From a virus: a stretch of 18,664 nt of DNA. The stretch lies in the UHGV virus genome UHGV-0257810. One strand, written 5' to 3'. The position numbers were made by a program, and so were the translations under genes. This document shows, piece by piece, positions 10,096 through 16,937 of this stretch. Positions within the stretch are counted from its first letter, which is position 1; each line of letters opens with the position of its first letter. The notes beneath the pieces were generated by a model that saw only the letters and a list, made by a program, of their open reading frames with translations, was not told the DNA's origin and did no database searches.

Positions 10096-11427
10096 ATGGC
10101 TACTTGGCAAGGAACAAACGGCGGATTGTTGGCTGGTATCGGCGGCGTCAACTCAAACGCTCCGAGCGTAAATGACATCGGCAATACGCTTCAGCTTATC
10201 AGGCAGAACAATGATATTGAGCGTTCAGGCGCTAACAATGTTGGGCTGACTGCTTTGCAAGGCCTTTCAGGTATTGCTGGGGTGTTTCAGCAGGAAAAGC
10301 AGGCTCAGCGGCAGAAAGAATTTCAGCAGGCATACGCTAATGCTTATGCGTCTGGTGATCGCGGTGCTTTGCGTCAGTTGGCTACTCAATATCCAGAACA
10401 GATTGAATTCGTTCGTAAAGGCATGGGATTCATTGATGAAGATCAGCGTAATTCTATCGGCACCTTAGCGGCTGGCGCACGCCTTGCGTCATCGTCTCCA
10501 GAAGCAATGCAATCATGGCTGCAAAACAACGCCGGTGAGTTAGCTCGTGTTGGCGTTAATCCTCAGGACGTCGCTCAGATGTACCAACAGAACCCGCGGC
10601 AGTTCGGCGAATTTGTCGATCACCTGGGGATGAACAGTCTCGGACCCGAAAAATACTTTGACCTACAGGATAAAATGCAGGGTCGCCAGGTTACCATGCG
10701 CGGTCAGGATCTGGATTCGCAAACCGCCGCTCGGAATCAGGCAATCACAATGCGCGGGCAAGATATCCAGGCGAATTTAGGTCAGCAGCGCATTAATCTG
10801 GACGCAGAAACAAACCGCATTAACAACGAAAATAAGCGCCTTGACCGGATGCTATCAGCAGAAACTAACGACCTGAAGCGCCAGGAAATACAGAGCCGCA
10901 TAGCAGCCAACAACCAGCAGTTGCAGCAGAAGCAGCAAGCGCTAAATGATGGCTACAAAGACGGCATCAACACCCTCACAACCAGCATGTTCACTCTGAA
11001 CGATATCGTTAGTTCTCCTTCACTTAAGAGCATTACAGGCTTACGTGGAGTAATCCCCAACGTTCCAGGCTCACAGGCTGCAGACACTCAGGCACGACTT
11101 GATACCTTTAAATCCCAAGCATACCTGACAGCGGTTCAGGCCATGCGAGGCATGGGCGCACTTTCTGATGCCGAGGGCAAAAAGCTCGACCAGGCTGTTG
11201 GTTCGCTGCAGAACTCGCAGAGCGAGGAGTCCTTTCGTCGCAACGCTGGCGTCATCCTGAACACGCTCAACCAGAAGCGTAATGAGGCGGTTGGTAAGTA
11301 CGTTCAGCAAAACGGTATCAAGCGAGTGGAAGCGCCTCAGGCTTCTATAGATTACCTGAAGCAGCACCCCGAGCTGTCAATCGACTTCATTAATCGCTAC
11401 GGATATCTTCCATCTTTGGGGCAGTAA
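10096..11427 (+). CDS. Ejection (internal virion) protein, P22 gp20 type
   Basis: 443 aa in the gp20 position, with AAGGGG upstream of ATG 10096. Gln/Asn-rich with an internal repeat (VTMRGQDLD / ITMRGQDIQ). The stop is immediately followed by the next ATG. Confidence 0.8.
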   Translation: MATWQGTNGGLLAGIGGVNSNAPSVNDIGNTLQLIRQNNDIERSGANNVGLTALQGLSGIAGVFQQEKQAQRQKEFQQAYANAYASGDRGALRQLATQYPEQIEFVRKGMGFIDEDQRNSIGTLAAGARLASSSPEAMQSWLQNNAGELARVGVNPQDVAQMYQQNPRQFGEFVDHLGMNSLGPEKYFDLQDKMQGRQVTMRGQDLDSQTAARNQAITMRGQDIQANLGQQRINLDAETNRINNENKRLDRMLSAETNDLKRQEIQSRIAANNQQLQQKQQALNDGYKDGINTLTTSMFTLNDIVSSPSLKSITGLRGVIPNVPGSQAADTQARLDTFKSQAYLTAVQAMRGMGALSDAEGKKLDQAVGSLQNSQSEESFRRNAGVILNTLNQKRNEAVGKYVQQNGIKRVEAPQASIDYLKQHPELSIDFINRYGYLPSLGQ

Positions 11428-13821
11428 ATGGCTAATTACCGTGATTTGTTAGAGCAGGCTGGCGCACGTTACGGTGTGCCAGAAGGGTTGATGACTGCAC
11501 TGGGTGCCAAGGAGTCTTCTTACAACCCTGCCGCAGTAAGCTCCGCCGGGGCTGTAGGATTGACTCAGGTCATGCCTGGGACATGGCGTGATATGGGTTA
11601 TACCGATGAGCAAATGCAAAACCCCGAATATCAGGCTGACGCTGGCGCGCGCTATCTGGCAAAGATGTACCAGCAGTTTGGTAACTGGCGTGACGCTCTT
11701 CAGGCTTATCACGACGGTCCCGGCAACGTTATGAAGGCAAAGCGTGGTGAATATACGCCAGGACCTGAAGGCCGCGGTTACGTTGATGATCGCTTTGCTC
11801 AATGGGCGGGTGACCCGGTGACAGACTCAACAGTCGAACAGCGCGCCACCTCTGCAAAGGTACATCCTCAGCAAGACCCTAACAACCCGTTTGCACAACT
11901 GGAAGCACAGTCATCCGAACAAGTATCGGCATCAGGCGTGCAGTCAGACCAAAATAATCCATTTGCTCAGATTGAGCAGCAGGCAGCCAGTCAGCAGCCA
12001 CCTCAACCCGTAAGTTCTGTCGCACCGAAACCTGTTCAGCAGCAAGGCGGAATAATGTCTGACCTTGGTAATGGACTTGCTGAAACCGGGCGCGGCTTAC
12101 TACAGGCAGGAATCAACGTAGCGAACATACCTGCTGAACTCACTGATGCTGTAACAAGCGCGGCGGCTTGGGCTGGAGGTAAACTCGGCATTGGCGATGG
12201 TACATATCAACCAGCACCACGAGTAACAACGCAGGGATTAGAGCAGGACTTTGGCCTTCAGCAAGGCGCGCTGACTCCACAAACGACAGAGGGAAGGGTA
12301 TTTGCTGAAGCATTGCCTTACCTCACTCCTGCTGGCGTTGAGAGAGCGGCAACACAGGCACCAACACTTGCTGGTCGAATTGCTCAGGGTGCAACTCGTC
12401 TTCTAGCAGAAAACGCAGTTGGATCACTTGCTGCAAACAGTGCGAAAGATGATGCGGAAGCACTCGCCACCGATTTAGGCGTTGGTGTGCTGGCTGGCGG
12501 TGCTATTAACGCTGCCGGACGTGGATTAGGTGCTGCTTATCGTGGTGTTCGTGGTTCGATAGCACCAGAAGCTCAACAGGCTATCAGGTTTGCAGAGCGT
12601 GAAGGAGTTCCTCTGCACACCACAGACCTGTTACAGCCTACTTCCCGCGTCGGGAAAATGGCGCAGACTACAGCAGAAAATATCCCCCTGGCTGGCACAA
12701 GCGGAATGAGAGCAACGCAACAGGAAGCGAGAAGCCAGTTGGTGCAGAGATTTGCCGATAAATTCGGTGAGTATGATCCAGCGGTTGTTATTGACAGCCT
12801 TAAAGCGAAAACATCAGGAATTCGTCGTGCCGCCGGTAATCGACTGGAGCAGGTTCAGAATGCTATGGCTGGAGTAAACATTCAGCCTGCGCGAGCAATT
12901 CAGCAGATTGATACAGAAATATCTAATCTGCAGAAGCTTGGTAAGGTCGCCGATAACGAGACTATTTCAAAACTTCAGTCCTATCGTGATGAGCTTGTTC
13001 GCAATGCTGGTCCTGATGGTCCGGTAAATCTGGATTTGAAGCAATTAAGCGATCTGCGCAGCCAGTTCAGAATGGACGTGAAGGGGGAACGACCAGTGTT
13101 GCCAAACCGTTCCGATGCTGCCATTCAGCGCGTTTACAAGGCGATGACAGACGATATCAATGGTGCCATTGGTCAGAATCTTGGCAACGATACTCTCCGT
13201 AAATATCAGCAGGCCAATGCCGTCTACGCTGACGAAGCGGCGAAACTAAAGAATACCAGGCTGAAGAATGTTCTCATGAAAGGCGACCTGACGCCGGAAG
13301 TTGTCAACAACATGCTATTCAGCAAGAACAAATCGGAAATTAAGACGCTGTATAACTCAGTTGGTCGTGTTGGCAGGGCGCAAATGCGCAATGGCATCAT
13401 TGGAAAGGCGATGGAGAAATCAGGTGGTTCCCCTGACCAGTTCCTTCGGCAGCTTAACATCCTGCAAAACCAGACTGGCATCACATTTAAGGGGCAGGAC
13501 GCTGCTTATCTGAAAGGATTAAAAAACTATCTGCAATCCACGCAGCAGGCTGCAAAAGCGGCAGTAACAACACCCACAGGGCAGCAAACTATCCCGTTCA
13601 TTATTGGGTATGGGACGGCAATGAACCCGGCGACAACTGGCACAGCAGTAAGCTACGGACTTCTTACTCGCGCCTATGAGAGCGAGCCATTCAGAAATGC
13701 AATGCTCCGAATGGCAAACACCCCACGCGGATCGACAGCGTTTGAGAAAGCCATGCAGCAAGCGCAAAAAGCGATTAATGCACTGACGCAGGGTGCTAAG
13801 TCTGATTCGTTGTCAGAATAG
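11428..13821 (+). CDS. Ejection protein, P22 gp16 type, with N-terminal SLT-family lytic transglycosylase domain
   Basis: 797 aa, against 609 aa recalled for P22 gp16. The first ~120 aa carry family-1 lytic transglycosylase motifs (catalytic-type ES in GAKESSYNP, then AVGLTQVMPGTW, then AYHDGPGN). A linker follows with a duplicated NNPFAQ-x-E-x-Q motif, then a long Ala/Gly-rich body in the gp16 position. Confidence 0.85.
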   Translation: MANYRDLLEQAGARYGVPEGLMTALGAKESSYNPAAVSSAGAVGLTQVMPGTWRDMGYTDEQMQNPEYQADAGARYLAKMYQQFGNWRDALQAYHDGPGNVMKAKRGEYTPGPEGRGYVDDRFAQWAGDPVTDSTVEQRATSAKVHPQQDPNNPFAQLEAQSSEQVSASGVQSDQNNPFAQIEQQAASQQPPQPVSSVAPKPVQQQGGIMSDLGNGLAETGRGLLQAGINVANIPAELTDAVTSAAAWAGGKLGIGDGTYQPAPRVTTQGLEQDFGLQQGALTPQTTEGRVFAEALPYLTPAGVERAATQAPTLAGRIAQGATRLLAENAVGSLAANSAKDDAEALATDLGVGVLAGGAINAAGRGLGAAYRGVRGSIAPEAQQAIRFAEREGVPLHTTDLLQPTSRVGKMAQTTAENIPLAGTSGMRATQQEARSQLVQRFADKFGEYDPAVVIDSLKAKTSGIRRAAGNRLEQVQNAMAGVNIQPARAIQQIDTEISNLQKLGKVADNETISKLQSYRDELVRNAGPDGPVNLDLKQLSDLRSQFRMDVKGERPVLPNRSDAAIQRVYKAMTDDINGAIGQNLGNDTLRKYQQANAVYADEAAKLKNTRLKNVLMKGDLTPEVVNNMLFSKNKSEIKTLYNSVGRVGRAQMRNGIIGKAMEKSGGSPDQFLRQLNILQNQTGITFKGQDAAYLKGLKNYLQSTQQAAKAAVTTPTGQQTIPFIIGYGTAMNPATTGTAVSYGLLTRAYESEPFRNAMLRMANTPRGSTAFEKAMQQAQKAINALTQGAKSDSLSE

Positions 13822-13911: not shown

Positions 13912-14397
13912 TTATCTGATGTTACTGCTACTGTTGCATGTGACTGTATTTCCAAACCCTGAATTGCAGTTTGTGTAAGTGTCAACTCGTGTTGGATAGG
14001 GTTGAGTTATAACAGGCTGTCTCGCTTTTTGCTCGATCGCTTGCATTGTGTTTACAGCCTGATAATTCAATAAAGCCTGCTGGAATGCTTGGCTTTGTGC
14101 TATTTGTTGTGCTTGTTCTTGGCTTTGTAATTGAACATAAAGATTCTGAAGCTCAAGTCTTGCCTGTGCGTCACTTATCTTGCCTTCATCGACACCTTGC
14201 CCGAGCATCTTTGCAGCAAGGACATACAGTTTAGGTGTTGGTGCTGATGCCATGCGTGAGTCGTTCTTCACACTGGCATCAAGGCAATTAGCCATATCGC
14301 TAAGCTTTTGATAGCGTTGTTCGCAACTTGCTTGATAGTCACTTACTTTTGCGCATCCAACCAGCAGAAGCGGGATAATTAACAGTGATTTTTTCAT
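13912..14397 (-). CDS. Predicted lipoprotein of unknown function (accessory, moron-like)
   Basis: Start taken at the internal Met (ATG 14397-14395) because AAGGAGAG lies 8 nt upstream and it yields a classic signal peptide with lipobox (MKKSLLIIPLLLVGC). The mature ~137 aa has a Gln-rich helical segment and a Cys-containing C-terminus. Local GC is visibly lower than the flanking structural genes. Confidence 0.7.
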   Translation of the reverse strand: MKKSLLIIPLLLVGCAKVSDYQASCEQRYQKLSDMANCLDASVKNDSRMASAPTPKLYVLAAKMLGQGVDEGKISDAQARLELQNLYVQLQSQEQAQQIAQSQAFQQALLNYQAVNTMQAIEQKARQPVITQPYPTRVDTYTNCNSGFGNTVTCNSSSNIR

Positions 14398-14454
14398 ATG
14401 GTTAACTCTCCTTAGTTTTTCACAGGATAGCATGAAGGCAATGCCATTTTAGCC

Positions 14455-14482
14455 GGAAACTAGATTTCTATGTTTCCTTTTT
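14455..14482 (+). terminator. Possible plus-orientation hairpin with T-run, overlapping the mnt stop codon
   Basis: GGAAAC (14455-14460), 11-nt loop, GTTTCC (14472-14477), then TTTTTATTATT on the plus strand. On the minus strand the hairpin is not followed by a U-tract, so it would not terminate the mnt transcript. Confidence 0.3.
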
Positions 14483-14734
14483 ATTATTGCTATACATGGT
14501 CTTAAGCGTTTCAAAAACCATTTTCTTAACCATATCAGATTGTTGTTCTGCCATACGCTCTGCATCGTCAATGTAAACGGATGCAGAGCTTTGTTTAGAC
14601 AACGATTCTTCAATCGCTGCAATTATCTCTGAGTTCAGCGATCTGTTATTCATCTTCGCACGCTGCTTAATTTTCGCGTGGAGTTCATGCGGAAGTCTCA
14701 AGTGAAACTGCGCCTCATCGTATTTGCTGTACAT
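14468..14734 (-). CDS. mnt: Mnt-like ribbon-helix-helix (Arc/MetJ family) repressor
   Basis: FHLRLPHELHAKIKQRAKMNNRSLNSEIIAAIEESL is a canonical RHH DNA-binding motif. The C-terminus AERMAEQQSDMVKKMVFETLKTMY parallels the P22 Mnt tetramerisation tail as recalled. Start chosen at ATG 14734 (GAGG 8 nt upstream, 88 aa); the first in-frame ATG at 14767 would give 99 aa. Confidence 0.85.
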   Translation of the reverse strand: MYSKYDEAQFHLRLPHELHAKIKQRAKMNNRSLNSEIIAAIEESLSKQSSASVYIDDAERMAEQQSDMVKKMVFETLKTMYSNNKKET

Positions 14735-14807
14735 CCTTGATGCCTCACCAGTTGGGTGGAATGGCATCGTAACCTACTGGATAAATACTCAATAGTACCA
14801 TTTCGGT

Positions 14808-14830
14808 ATGCAATCACATCATGGTTGCAT
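14808..14830. promoter_or_regulatory. Inverted repeat ATGCAA-N11-TTGCAT in the mnt/tailspike divergent intergenic region (candidate operator)
   Basis: Read directly: ATGCAA at 14808-14813 and its reverse complement TTGCAT at 14825-14830, about 30 bp upstream of the tailspike start and between two divergent genes. Function is not established. Confidence 0.25.
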
Positions 14831-14855
14831 CATATCATTCGTCTGGAGAAATGAA

Positions 14856-16937
14856 ATGTCAGATATCACCGCAAATGTTGTGGTAAGCATGCCTTCGCAA
14901 CTCTTCACTATGGCTCGTTCTTTTAAAGCCGTAGCCAATGGCAAAATTTATATCGGTAAAATTGACACTGACCCGGTAAATCCAGAAAACCAGATTCAGG
15001 TTTATGTAGAGAACGAAGAAGGCTCTCATGTTCCTGTATCGCAACCAATCATCATTAACGCTGCTGGATATCCGGTATATAACGGACAGATTGCCAAGTT
15101 CGTAACTGAGCAAGGCCATTCTATGGCTGTTTATGATGCGTATGGGGCGCAGCAGTTCTATTTTCCGAATGTTATAAAGTACGATCCAGATCAATTTAAA
15201 CAAGAGTTATCTAGTAATTCTGGAGCTTCATTAATAGGAACAGAGTCAGGAAAAACTGTTCAGGATGAATTGGATGAAATAGATAGAGATATTTCTCTTA
15301 ACAATATTTTATCTCATGAAAAAAATAGATTTAACTTTATCTTTTCACACTACTACAAACGTACTTTTAATAATGATTTAAGACTGCAATTACAGAGCTA
15401 TGTCGATGGGATTTATAATTTTGCCCCCAAAAGCGTATCTCTACCCAGTGGAAGATTAGTAACTATCTATACGGTAAAGGAAGGTGCCAATTCTGACCCC
15501 GGACAAGATGGTACCCCAATGCATATTGACTTCATGATTTCCGACGATAACGGGGTCAACTGGACGCAAACAGGTACTGTAGTTAATAAGGGTGTAGGTT
15601 ACGCTACATCTGAAACAATTCTATTCCTCAATAACAATGACGGGTATCTGTACTGTTTTTTCACTTCAATGAAGGGTATAACCGGATGGGGTCACGCCCA
15701 GCAAGGTACAGACCCGGACACCACATCCACCATTGAGTATTGCGTATCTAAAGACCGCGGAGAGACATGGAGCGCGCCGGTCGATATTACAGCAGCCGTT
15801 AAGCCCGCAGGTGCGTATTTTTCATCTATCGCACCGACGCAAGCAGGATATATTAATGGTAGACCAGCGATACCCTATTACTACCTTACTACTATTTCCT
15901 CCGGGATTGTAGAAGGGTATATAACTACAGATGACGATGGAAACTACATTTACGGTGGAGATGTCAGGAAAGACACCGATGTCGATACGCTAGGAACTTC
16001 TGGCGGCGAGATTGGATTTGGCAATTTCTATGATGGAACACCTTTTGCAATTGAGCGTGCTGCCGACACAACAATCAAACCGTATAAAATCGCAATACAA
16101 AAGCTATTAATGCAAGATTCTAGTGGGAAGTGGATTGTAAAAGGACAGTTCCCTACCACTGACTGCATGGCCTCTTTTTTAAGAGTTGGTCCTGATTTTG
16201 GGTTTGATAAAGATTATCTGTTTGTGGTGGCACCAATAGGATCAACAGGACAATTTGAAGGAAGGGCTAACCTTAGATTATTTGATTGCACTAACGACTT
16301 TAATAATCCTGTTGATAAGGGCATGTTATCTGTTAGTGCTGTTGTTGAAACAGGGTATAGCTCAACTGTTCTTTTATCATCCGGGGCGATGATGAGCGTG
16401 TGGAATGGGAGACAATGGACCGTCAACAACTCTATTTATACCGTAAACAGGCTTGTAGGTAATAATGTTATACCAGTACCTTTCTGTGGAACGCTTAAAA
16501 TAGTAGACACTAACAGAACTTTCTCACAGGATATATTCGTTAACGAGCGTGTTATTGGTATTGCTGACGGGATAATGTACCGGTGGACAGGATCGGATTT
16601 TGTTAGGGAAAATGCGGCGATACCATCGAAAATAAATTCAGTTGTCTCAACGCTTAACGCCGACATGGCAGACTTGTTTTATCTTGATTCATCGTCTTCA
16701 GGTTCGACATTAACCAGTATAACCGGTGGATATATAGGTAAAACAATACGTATACTGCCACTTTCATCACTTACAGAAGTTACCCTTGTAAAACAGGCAC
16801 CCGGCGTTTCTGTTAATGACAGAATAATGTACAATACGTCGCCTAGTGTTACTAAGTACAAAACAAATGGGGAGCTTATACAATTGACTAAAACTAACTA
16901 CGGATGGTATCTGGATAAATCAGCAAACAGTGTTTAA
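14856..16937 (+). CDS. Tailspike: P22-type head-binding domain fused to an Asp-box-containing receptor-binding domain
   Basis: Start at ATG 14856 with GGAGAA at 14845-14850. The N-terminus [13 protein letters not shown]...[20 protein letters not shown]...YDPDQF matches the P22 gp9 head-binding domain as recalled (first ~113 aa). Downstream sequence is unrelated to P22 and contains Asp-box motifs SDDNGVNW (15540-15563) and SKDRGETW (15747-15770). GC drops sharply just after the YDPDQF junction (~15195). Confidence 0.9.

Follow-up and report, generated by a model that had tools for sequence, protein, structure and literature searches.

The ejection proteins of P22 form a conduit across the cell envelope, and P22 gp16 is present in virions and released before DNA entry (PMC10461980). 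In T7, the N-terminal part of gp16 (gp16-N) is a lytic transglycosylase within the periplasmic tunnel; the segment after it, a 'molecular tape', binds gp15 (PMC8954989). P22 gp16 and the T7 protein, also known as internal virion protein D (IVP-D), have been treated as alternatives in the literature (PMC4819975), and a 2022 review stated that P22-like phages lack lytic transglycosylase activity. P22 virions do hold another reported wall-degrading protein, gp4, which has been given as their only one (PMC5380687). In the literature we searched, an SLT domain was neither described nor tested for any P22-like gp16, and an earlier mention is possible.

Here we analyzed an 18,664-nucleotide stretch of the virus genome UHGV-0257810, referred to as the window throughout, in which a gp16-type gene carries such a domain. 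We consider it likely that ORF 11428–13821 is the gene for the gp16-type ejection protein in a P22-like prophage, that the variable N-terminal arm of this protein is an SLT domain, and that the domain serves at entry (Table 1).

Table 1 Features of the gp20–gp16 region of the window
Feature	Position	Strand	Evidence
gp20 (Inj_translocase family), last ~263 aa; inherited jointly with the SLT arm	10636..11427	+	Pfam, linkage
Complete gene for a gp16-family ejection (DNA transfer) protein with N-terminal SLT arm	11428..13821	+	ORF list, translation
Lytic transglycosylase (SLT) domain, folded, goose-lysozyme-like, aa 1–127	11428..11808	+	Pfam, AF2, Foldseek, dN/dS
GAG codon of Glu29, candidate catalytic acid (E-S motif)	11512..11514	+	Aligned to Slt70 Glu478
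Tether of ~80 aa, Q/P/S/A-rich, predicted disordered, containing both motifs	11809..12048	+	Composition, pLDDT, dN/dS
Motif copy 1, DPNNPFAQLE, aa 150–159	11875..11904	+	Repeat comparison; predicted short helix aa 154–162
Motif copy 2, DQNNPFAQIE, aa 174–183	11947..11976	+	Repeat comparison, spacing, dN/dS
Mosaic joint, Sf101-type arm to Sf6-type gp16 core; encodes ...QQGGIMSDLGNGLAETGRGLLQ	12045..12103	+	Identity breakpoints
gp16 core, aa 208–797, Sf6 gene 13 type	12049..13821	+	DNA identity to Sf6

A lytic transglycosylase domain at the N-terminus of a gp16-type protein

The ORF is a single uninterrupted frame of 797 aa whose ATG lies immediately 3' of the gp20 stop codon. Matches to Pfam P22_gp7 and Inj_translocase directly upstream and to a Head_binding tailspike downstream give the order gp7, gp20, gp16 of a P22-like prophage, with the ORF as the third gene of this cluster between gp14 and the tailspike region. 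The original prediction of a gp16-type ejection protein is borne out by this synteny and by the sequence of the core, which is 94.5–95% identical to Sf6 gene 13 at the DNA level, shares 33% protein identity with P22 gp16 and matches PHROG 770 ('DNA transfer protein', E = 1e-238, aa 108–797), while 99%-identical homologues are annotated with both Pfam SLT and PF26808 (Phage_P22_gp16). The core has 1128 relatives among 50%-identity representatives. The expected excess of about 190 aa over P22 gp16 amounts to 188 aa (797 versus 609 aa), and the SLT arm replaces the short variable N-terminal arm of other gp16 proteins (~55 aa in P22, ~75 aa in Sf6) rather than being appended to a P22-type protein.

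Residues 7–110 match Pfam SLT (PF01464) with E = 2.8e-25 and 88.6 bits, against a curated cut-off of 21.3 bits, and cover profile positions 2–110 of 117. All motifs named in the original prediction were found, namely GAKES with E29, GLTQ (aa 44–47) and AYHDGPG (aa 93–99), and the proposed catalytic glutamate holds its place in the alignment, in which E29-S30 falls on E478-S479 of E. coli Slt70. Residues E29, S30, G44, Y94 and G97 are invariant in an alignment of 126 sequences; the matches to the arm alone as a protein query, all of them fragments or unrelated bacterial SLT proteins, were used as alignment depth. AlphaFold2 (AF2) modeled aa 1–110 with block-mean pLDDT values of 85–98 and helices up to aa 127, and together with Foldseek indicated a goose-lysozyme-like all-helical fold. 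The top Foldseek PDB matches were Slt70, LtgA, Pseudomonas Slt and MltC/D/E/F (probability 1.00), and T7 gp16 was also among them (9jyy_I, 7k5c_B, 7eyb_I). Taken together, these data show that the N-terminal arm carries a family-1 (SLT/GH23-type) lytic transglycosylase domain with an intact E-S motif. Residues 1–130 had been suggested for a domain search; the conserved part of the module reaches to about aa 160.

Slt70, MltC, MltD, MltE, MltF and LtgA share the catalytic fold and the E-S, GLxQ and AYxxG motifs with the present protein, whose domain is 33% identical to that of Slt70. Cellular lytic transglycosylases are exported by means of a signal peptide or lipobox and contain other accessory domains. 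Unlike these family-1 enzymes with their export signals, the present protein is a virion-protein fusion in which neither a signal peptide nor a classical transmembrane helix was detected (highest 19-residue hydropathy 1.36).

One feature counts against enzymatic activity: the AYNxG motif reads AYHDG here (aa 93–97), with histidine in place of the near-invariant asparagine at position 95. This substitution, as well as the normal infection by P22-like phages that have no SLT domain, would fit an inactive domain that serves as a structural or wall-binding anchor, or as a spacer in the conduit, and does not cut peptidoglycan. We regard this as improbable, as the E-S pair, GLxQ and AY..G motifs are retained in every homologue examined, with a conservative E-T in phage sortkaff as the sole variation, and the fold matches active enzymes. 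Moreover, the dN/dS of the domain (0.02–0.07) is as low as that of an enzyme core; in comparison with the Cronobacter homologue it is 0.02, versus 0.065 for the gp16 core. An active domain thus remains our preferred reading.

The original prediction had likened the arm to the transglycosylase domain of T7 gp16, and this analogy proved reasonable, with gp16-N recovered by both sequence and fold searches. The sequence matches (7eyb_I and 6yt5_G, E ~6e-4) span aa 3–112. In both proteins, an N-terminal lytic transglycosylase domain with this fold precedes an extended segment (T7 structures 7k5c, 7eyb and 9jyy), and T7 gp16 is likewise an ejected internal protein and the last in a three-gene ejection cluster. 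However, the relationship is confined to the N-terminal domain (E = 6e-4, ~24% identity). Between the 590-aa core and the C-terminal part of T7 gp16 (gp16-C) no similarity was detectable, and a search of aa 208–797 against PDB sequences returned no T7 gp16 chain even at E values up to 1, nor was any relative of the core with a solved structure found. By analogy, the protein would work like T7 gp16-N, yet it is no member of the T7 gp16 family.

A mobile arm on different gp16 cores and its distribution

The SLT domain and tether, which make up the first ~207 aa, have a 99% identical counterpart in phage Sf101. Its gp13 (AII27837, annotated as 'transglycosylase', 911 aa) occupies the same position after gp20 and matches the first 206 aa of the present protein at this level. 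In Sf101, however, the same arm sits on a different and longer gp16 core, which is of the P22/HK620 type at its start. The fusion point, for which alignment to P22 and Sf6 gp16 had been suggested, was placed by the breakpoints in identity: identity to Sf101 stops at 12045 and identity to Sf6 begins at 12103. The end of 12030 given in the original prediction is thus not the fusion point; the module boundary lies at aa ~207–226, and all gp16 types can be aligned from this joint onward. Sf6 gp13, P22 gp16 and HK620 gp16 share the homologous core from aa ~208, the synteny and the presumed conduit role with the present protein, but have arms of 55–75 aa with neither an SLT domain nor a twin motif. 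These comparisons show that the arm is a mobile mosaic module that occurs on two or more distinct gp16 cores.

Chimeric gp16 entries do exist in databases, with needle, gp7 or NinG sequences fused to the core (clusters P0231, P0234 and P0235), which raised the question of whether faulty assembly or gene calling had produced the long ORF by joining a separate SLT gene to gp16. The probability of such an artefact is, in our judgement, negligible: the frame is unbroken in the window and recurs in prophages of Cronobacter and K. aerogenes, in 67 complete E. coli genomes and in the phages IME10, phiKp_30 and Sf101. Translation from an internal start, the invariant Met210 of the module joint, was also considered and rejected, since no consistent ribosome-binding site precedes it across gp16 genes; a sequence resembling one is found in the window and in Cronobacter, is weak or absent in other gp16 genes and is clearly absent in P22.

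The genuine fusion is a minority form, accounting for approximately 4 of 116 gp16 sequence clusters. Among 5426 complete E. coli genomes, 70 (~1.3%) contain the SLT arm, and a scan of species-representative genomes gave just three loci; wider occurrence was taken from the full-length protein search and contig look-ups. Six isolated phages carry the arm, three with the core of the window and three with the Sf101-type core, and it is also present in prophages of Cronobacter, Klebsiella aerogenes, Kosakonia and Enterobacter. The same full-length architecture is found at 97–99% identity in IME10, in whose record the gene 16 region leaves the gene unannotated, and in many E. coli proteins, including 99%-identical RefSeq entries of 797 aa from E. 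coli prophages designated 'lytic transglycosylase domain-containing protein'.

The fusion is thus not new: it is a minority yet widespread form with existing annotation in GenBank, RefSeq, Pfam and PHROGs, which makes the discovery a modest one. Nevertheless, as judged from gene content, database records show that the picture of gp4 as the only wall-degrading virion protein would be true only of the model phages. This prophage or IME10 on the one hand and Sf6 on the other constitute natural matched pairs, the cores being 95% identical and the arm present in the former but not in Sf6; they offer a direct test of the contribution of a virion-borne wall cutter to entry in the P22 system.

The tether and its twin NPFAQ motifs

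Beyond the SLT domain, from aa ~129 onward, most AF2 pLDDT values fall below 50 and better-scoring stretches are short, and the tether is dominated by glutamine (21%) and by alanine, proline and serine (12% each). It contains the duplicated motif of the original prediction. The first copy, NNPFAQLEAQ (aa 152–161), had been placed correctly at 11881–11910; the second had been given as 11954–11983 and was one base off, NNPFAQIEQQ (aa 176–185) occupying bases 11953–11982.

As the two copies lie in a Q/P/S-rich tether of low pLDDT, they could be low-complexity noise or the functionless leftover of a neutral duplication. Caution is also advised by a look-alike repeat picked by eye in cluster P0382, which was rejected as non-significant, having been equaled by 815 of 1000 shuffles. 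The copies in the window, on the other hand, are identical at 8 of 10 residues, and shuffling the 82-aa linker 5000 times produced an equally good pair just once. Their DNA agrees at 19 of 30 bases but at no more than 2 of 10 third-codon positions, and recent slippage can therefore not account for the duplication. Furthermore, the spacing of 24 residues is fixed in all 107 clusters that have both copies (107 of 120 among the clusters listed), and dN/dS is 0.04 in the two motifs versus 0.17–0.30 in the surrounding tether (0.17 against the Cronobacter homologue). These values, together with those of the SLT domain, show that both the domain and the twin motifs are under strong purifying selection.

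Analogous pairs that are significant by shuffling were found in phages sortkaff and IME_EC2 (0 of 1000 each) and in cluster P0362 (9 of 1000); none was detected in cluster P0301, nor in the P22 and Sf6 arms, which have no SLT domain. On balance, a lack of function appears unlikely to us, though it retains appreciable weight, and we favor the twin motifs as a functional element. Autoinhibition of the SLT domain by the motifs was considered as well and found no support, since the motifs are not docked onto the domain in the AF2 model, in which their confidence is low.

A close comparison for this arrangement is provided by gp26 of the Murrayvirus IME_EC2 and gp44 of the Sortsnevirus sortkaff, 1007-aa 'DNA transfer proteins' encoded at the gp16 position, whose SLT domains are 61–67% identical to the present one. 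They also share the TPGPEGRxYVDxRF and QRATSA segments and possess a pair of NxFDQF motifs, with motif copy 1 of the window aligned to NFFDQFD of sortkaff. In contrast to the present protein, their SLT domain begins near aa 34, their core has diverged past aa ~330, and the two motifs flank the SLT domain, whereas both follow it here.

Linkage with gp20 and a proposed role at entry

The region 10096–12045 of the window forms one block with 98.5% identity to Sf101 that extends from gp20 into the arm. The corresponding type of gp20 C-terminal region (gp20-C) occurs in 69 E. coli genomes and the SLT arm in 70, and the two are adjacent in every accession common to both lists. Nine phage records, representing six phages, contain this gp20-C type at an identity of at least 97%, and the SLT arm is present in 9 of 9; the only other arm-bearing phage record is a 2.7-kb fragment. 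Identity of gp20-C to that of the window amounts to 66–100% in SLT-bearing loci versus 19–42% in SLT-less loci. The SLT arm is thus shown to be always inherited with the C-terminal two-thirds of the neighboring gp20 gene. Simple adjacency may explain part of this linkage, both segments lying within 1.4 kb, but by analogy with T7 it also hints at a gp15/gp16-N-like interaction and provides a lead on the parts through which gp20 and gp16 may contact each other in the conduit.

Based on the P22 ejection proteins and on T7 gp16, we propose that the protein is packaged in the virion, as P22 gp16 is (PMC10461980), and that, once the phage has adsorbed, it would leave through the tail along with gp7 and gp20. 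Lacking a signal peptide, it could enter the periplasm by ejection alone. In that compartment, the SLT domain would cut MurNAc-GlcNAc bonds locally and widen a hole in the sacculus, through which the gp20/gp16 conduit could reach the inner membrane. Such an activity would probably matter most in dense or highly cross-linked peptidoglycan, as in stationary phase or at low temperature, similar to T7. As P22, Sf6 and HK620 infect although their gp16 proteins have no SLT domain, the domain cannot be generally essential.

SLT domains are also known from endolysins, and PHROG 669 and PHROG 10475 ('endolysin') were among the weaker matches, so that a late function in lysis and virion release, or one exerted through prophage expression, was weighed against the role at entry. 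This appears highly improbable to us in view of the in-frame fusion to an ejection protein, the position of the gene within the late virion operon, after gp20 and before the tailspike, and the lack of a signal peptide or signal-anchor on the fusion protein. In addition, the closest phage relatives of the domain are ejection, internal-virion or tape-measure proteins. We therefore retain the role at entry as the preferred explanation.

Tentatively, the twin motifs may serve to dock the arm onto gp20-C. A more far-reaching and rather speculative reading, which we hold to be doubtful, is that gp20-C and the gp16 arm represent a co-adapted interaction cassette, the P22-like counterpart of the periplasmic tunnel of T7 gp15 and gp16-N. 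The SLT domain would then lie outside the gp20 tube, level with the sacculus, and the F-centered twin motifs (NPFAQΦE here) would act as a fastening 'molecular tape'. The gp16 arm might, by the same reading, be a general cargo slot that carries the SLT domain, a 95-aa GNIDIHNRP domain, or both; this 95-aa insert domain gave no match to Pfam, PHROG or PDB sequences. The counterparts of the NPFAQ motifs in such a cassette would be NxFDQF in Murrayvirus and Sortsnevirus and DALxxGF in another lineage.

Gene context and SLT domain

The 18.7-kb window comprises the late (virion) operon and the integration end of a P22-like (Lederbergvirus-type) prophage. The gene under study encodes a 797-aa gp16-type ejection protein, its ATG immediately following the gp20 stop codon and its frame being unbroken; homology and synteny place the protein in the gp16 family, and an artefactual fusion of SLT and gp16 is highly improbable.

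Features of the window in gene order, with the modules of the 797-aa ORF
Feature	Position (strand)	Place	Remark
Terminase, portal, scaffold and coat genes		start of gene order	
gp4 and gp10		after coat gene	
Tail needle with Sf6-type knob		after gp10	
gp14		between tail needle and gp7	
gp7		after gp14	Pfam P22_gp7, E = 1.8e-134
gp20		directly before 797-aa ORF	Inj_translocase, E = 8.7e-68
gp20 plus SLT arm	10096-12045		single block
797-aa ORF	11428-13821 (+)	after gp20	
Motif copy 1, NNPFAQLEAQ	11881-11910		aa 152-161
Motif copy 2, NNPFAQIEQQ	11953-11982		aa 176-185
Module joint	12045-12103		aa ~207-226
Met210	12055-12057	at module joint	invariant in all gp16 types compared
Two small minus-strand genes		between 797-aa ORF and tailspike	
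173-aa ORF	13912-14433 (-)	place held by sieA in P22	PHROG 6067 (unknown function), E = 2e-110
99-aa Arc/Mnt-like repressor	14468-14767 (-)	between 173-aa ORF and tailspike	PHROG 795
Tailspike with P22 head-binding domain	14808-16937 (+)	after two minus-strand genes	P22/Sf6 head-binding domain at aa 17-129
Integrase		last	

The original prediction of an SLT lytic transglycosylase-type domain on a gp16-type ejection protein was supported by profile, catalytic Glu, fold, core homology and synteny. The ORF is indeed longer than P22 gp16 (797 vs 609 aa, +188 aa) and contains all three SLT motifs that had been named, GAKES with E29, GLTQ at aa 44-47 and AYHDGPG at aa 93-99. The search against PF01464 revealed a Pfam SLT match at aa 7-110 (E = 2.8e-25, 88.6 bits; cut-off 21.3 bits), while alignment to solved structures equated E29 with the catalytic Glu478 of E. 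coli Slt70, which was also the best match among solved structures; T7 gp16 was matched as well (E about 6e-4). Alignment with 125 homologues showed E29, S30, A42, G44, Y94 and G97 to be invariant, His95 for Asn being the sole deviation from near-invariant SLT positions. AlphaFold2 modelled aa 1-110 with confidence (block-mean pLDDT 85-98), with helices to aa 127 and pLDDT below 50 from about aa 140, and the top Foldseek matches against the PDB were all lytic transglycosylases (Slt70, LtgA, Pseudomonas Slt, MltC/D/E/F and three T7 gp16 entries). Profile, catalytic Glu, motifs and modelled fold assign the domain to the SLT family, with activity predicted.

For the analysis of selection, homologue DNA from Cronobacter, Klebsiella aerogenes and a metagenome was used. 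Against Cronobacter, dN/dS was 0.02 in the SLT domain, 0.04 in both motifs taken together, 0.17 elsewhere in the tether and 0.065 in the core. In the K. aerogenes comparison, synonymous sites were saturated, yet no more than 12% of the non-synonymous sites in SLT differed. The domain might instead be inactive and structural, but this is unlikely because its catalytic residues are conserved and its dN/dS is low. A role in lysis is very unlikely, given the neighbouring genes and the missing export signal; the 797-aa protein has neither a signal peptide nor a classical transmembrane helix.

Mosaic structure, twin motifs and linkage to gp20

The 797-aa protein is a mosaic, in which gene bases 1-618 showed 99.4% identity to phages Sf101, Dewey, Huey and APC_JM3.2 and bases 676-2394 showed 95% identity to Sf6 gene 13. 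The proposed alignment to P22/Sf6-type gp16 resolved the fusion point to the joint listed in the table, from which on all gp16 types are alignable (...QQ-G-(I/L/F)M-...-GRGL-QAG-N-(V/I)-NIP). As the mosaic joint coincides with this point, we concluded that the SLT arm replaces a short variable N-terminal arm and is not an add-on to a P22-type protein; the short arm measures about 55 aa in P22 gp16 and about 75 aa in Sf6 and HK620, and gp16 of these three phages gave no SLT match. Comparison with the arms of Murrayvirus IME_EC2 and Sortsnevirus sortkaff (61-67% identical to the window arm) revealed that the conserved part runs beyond the Pfam match, with three segments kept, namely TPGPEGRxYVDxRF, QRATSA and the first motif. 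The rest of the arm to aa 207 is a tether (Q 21%; A, P and S at 12% each) predicted to be disordered except for short helices at both motifs. A ribosome-binding-like sequence (AAGGCGGA) precedes Met210 in the window and in Cronobacter; as the other gp16 genes compared have at best a weak version of it, and P22 clearly has none, an internal start at Met210 is not supported as a general feature.

The duplication of the Phe-centred motif proved real, with 8/10 residues identical between copies and an equal or better pair in only 1 of 5000 linker shuffles; the position predicted for the first copy stood, while that for the second (11954-11983) was one base off. Third-codon positions agree at only 2/10 sites, which argues that the copies are old and maintained at the protein level. 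Both were present in 107 of the 120 clusters listed by the full-length search, with a spacing of 24 residues in all 107. Twin NFFDQFD occurs in sortkaff at aa 3 and aa 188 (0/1000 shuffles) and a matching pair, NIFDQF/NVFDQF, in IME_EC2, both pairs flanking the SLT domain, and a distant SLT-bearing cluster (P0362) carries DALSAGF and DALAQGF (9/1000 shuffles); no statistically supported twin Phe motifs were found in the SLT-less P22 or Sf6 arms, nor in gp7 or gp20. That the twin motifs are without function is doubtful in view of their conservation, fixed spacing and recurrence.

IME_EC2 gp26 (L006:4902-7925) and sortkaff gp44 (L008:3902-6925) are 1007-aa proteins in the gp16 position, with SLT starting at about aa 34, the first NxFDQF copy at the very N-terminus (aa 3-8) and the second about 45 aa past the SLT domain. 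The copies covary between the phages (NIFDQF/NVFDQF in IME_EC2 vs NFFDQFD/NFFDQFD in sortkaff).

The arm is not inherited alone. Together with gp20 it forms one block of 98.5% identity to Sf101, and in E. coli genomes the C-terminal ~263 aa of gp20 (gp20-C) occurred in 69 (67 full length) and the arm in 70 (67 full length), the two adjoining in every accession common to both sets among the matches listed. This gp20-C type (at least 97% identity) is present in nine phage records, all nine with the arm, the tenth arm-bearing record being a 2.7-kb fragment; in all other phages gp20-C reached at most 42% identity. Compared with the window, Cronobacter showed only 67% identity in the N-terminal part of gp20 and 96-100% in gp20-C and 98% in SLT, whereas the reverse was found for Sf6 and VSe13 (98-100%, 27-42% and no SLT), and the arm is followed by a freely varying gp16 core. 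The P22-like ejection gene cluster exhibits dense intragenic mosaicism (PMC10461980); given this, contact between gp20-C and the gp16 arm would be expected to produce such linkage, which adjacency of the two also favours. Docking of the arm on gp20-C via the twin motifs is a tentative possibility.

Proposed mechanism and distribution

A domain of enzyme type, under selection and with its catalytic motif intact, is combined with a twin-motif tether and a gp16 core in a modularly inherited protein without export signal. After adsorption, P22 ejection proteins leave the virion and make a trans-envelope conduit (PMC10461980). In T7 gp16, the transglycosylase forms the N-terminus, sits on the periplasmic tunnel and precedes a gp15-binding tape segment; the protein is required when peptidoglycan is highly cross-linked (PMC8954989). 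By analogy with these systems, we consider it likely that the 797-aa protein would be packaged and then ejected, with the SLT domain refolding in the periplasm and opening the sacculus locally for the conduit to reach the inner membrane; the benefit of the arm would probably be conditional. The protein may thus work like T7 gp16-N but lies outside the T7 gp16 family, because its 590-aa core has no detectable similarity to T7 gp16.

Of the phage records, three of IME10, that of phiKp_30 and a fragment of ECO26.1 have the full architecture, and in Sf101 (two records), Dewey, Huey and APC_JM3.2 this arm is joined to another, longer core; for comparison, a gp7 homologue is present in 145 records. 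Complete E. coli genomes carried the arm in 70 of 5426 cases and the Sf6-type core in 336; 797-aa proteins at 98-99% identity are numerous in a large protein collection (1295 members in one cluster), with 72-86% identical versions in Cronobacter, K. aerogenes, Kosakonia and Enterobacter. The best 150 50%-identity representatives of the gp16 core included 116 of at least 550 aa, most of these 560-720 aa long, and a home-built SLT profile detected SLT in five of the 116, one being a deletion variant of the window's type, which leaves about four lineages; Pfam confirmed SLT in two of the three distant SLT-bearing representatives. From these phage, genome and representative counts, we concluded that the SLT-gp16 fusion is a recurrent minority form.

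The architecture is not new and already present in databases: Sf101 gp13 bears the GenBank product name "transglycosylase", the E. coli proteins are named "lytic transglycosylase domain-containing protein" in RefSeq, PHROG 21143 covers the arm, and SLT + Phage_P22_gp16 exists as a precomputed Pfam architecture. It appears under-appreciated in the literature, where a full-text search returned no description or test of an SLT arm on P22-like gp16, an earlier published remark being possible; a 2022 review describes the activity as missing from P22-like phages, and a review of virion-associated lysins names only gp4 for P22 (PMC5380687). RefSeq/PGAP also applies the lytic transglycosylase name to 665-aa Sf6-type gp16, the SLT-less counterparts of the core at 12049-13821 (e.g. 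P0237, P0239; VSe13 gp13, L003:1722-3719), for which Pfam gave no SLT and only PF26808 is precomputed. Most core matches among those listed in complete E. coli genomes bear this name, which appears to have been over-propagated from the fused form to the SLT-less 665-aa proteins.

Other possible cargo and neighbouring genes

In 880-886-aa gp16 variants (P0216, aa ~187-285; P0227), a domain of ~95 aa (…GLIQEGNIDIHNRPVVKNPDGSISTVRSMSTNIDGREVLIPTVSDDGRIMSDDEAIDNFMRTGKHLGIFDNPDDATAYAERLHNQQADEYL) directly follows the second NPFAQIE motif, and in phage CurroJimenez_Bas106 gp16 (L015:2851-5343) it lies within an SLT-less Sf6-type arm. It had no Pfam, PHROG or PDB-sequence match, and tblastn revealed it in 20 podophage records at 43-90% identity (56-90% in 19 near-full-length matches). 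Carriers with an annotation are labelled as proteins of the ejection or internal-virion kind (SPN1S, CVT22, Klebsiella Klyazma 'IVP-C-like', Aeromonas, Proteus), while the Rhizobium matches have none; the domain looks like an uncharacterised mobile cargo domain. The 1043-aa core representative P0361 carries a C-terminal PF18823 'InPase' domain (E = 5e-56), which suggests that effector-like cargo is also possible at the C-terminal end of gp16-family ejection proteins. Three further database proteins (P0231, P0234, P0235) have an N-terminus resembling the tail needle, a domain of gp7 or one of NinG in front of an Sf6-type core; rather than functional variants, they are most likely remnants left by prophage deletion or chimeras formed during assembly.

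The receptor-binding part of the tailspike gave weak BNR/sialidase-like matches (BNR_2, E = 1e-6; PDB 4fj6, a GH33 candidate sialidase, E = 4e-5) and no match to the receptor-binding domains of the P22, Sf6 or HK620 tailspikes. The Arc/Mnt-like repressor, whose product label is also that of P22 mnt in the P22 record, marks a reduced immI-type region that lacks an intervening ant gene. The 173-aa ORF, which has no Pfam match, reads MKKSLLIIPLLLVGC from its 13th codon, a typical lipoprotein signal with lipobox. Its product may be a prophage-expressed periplasmic lipoprotein and, as such, a candidate superinfection-exclusion factor against incoming ejection proteins.
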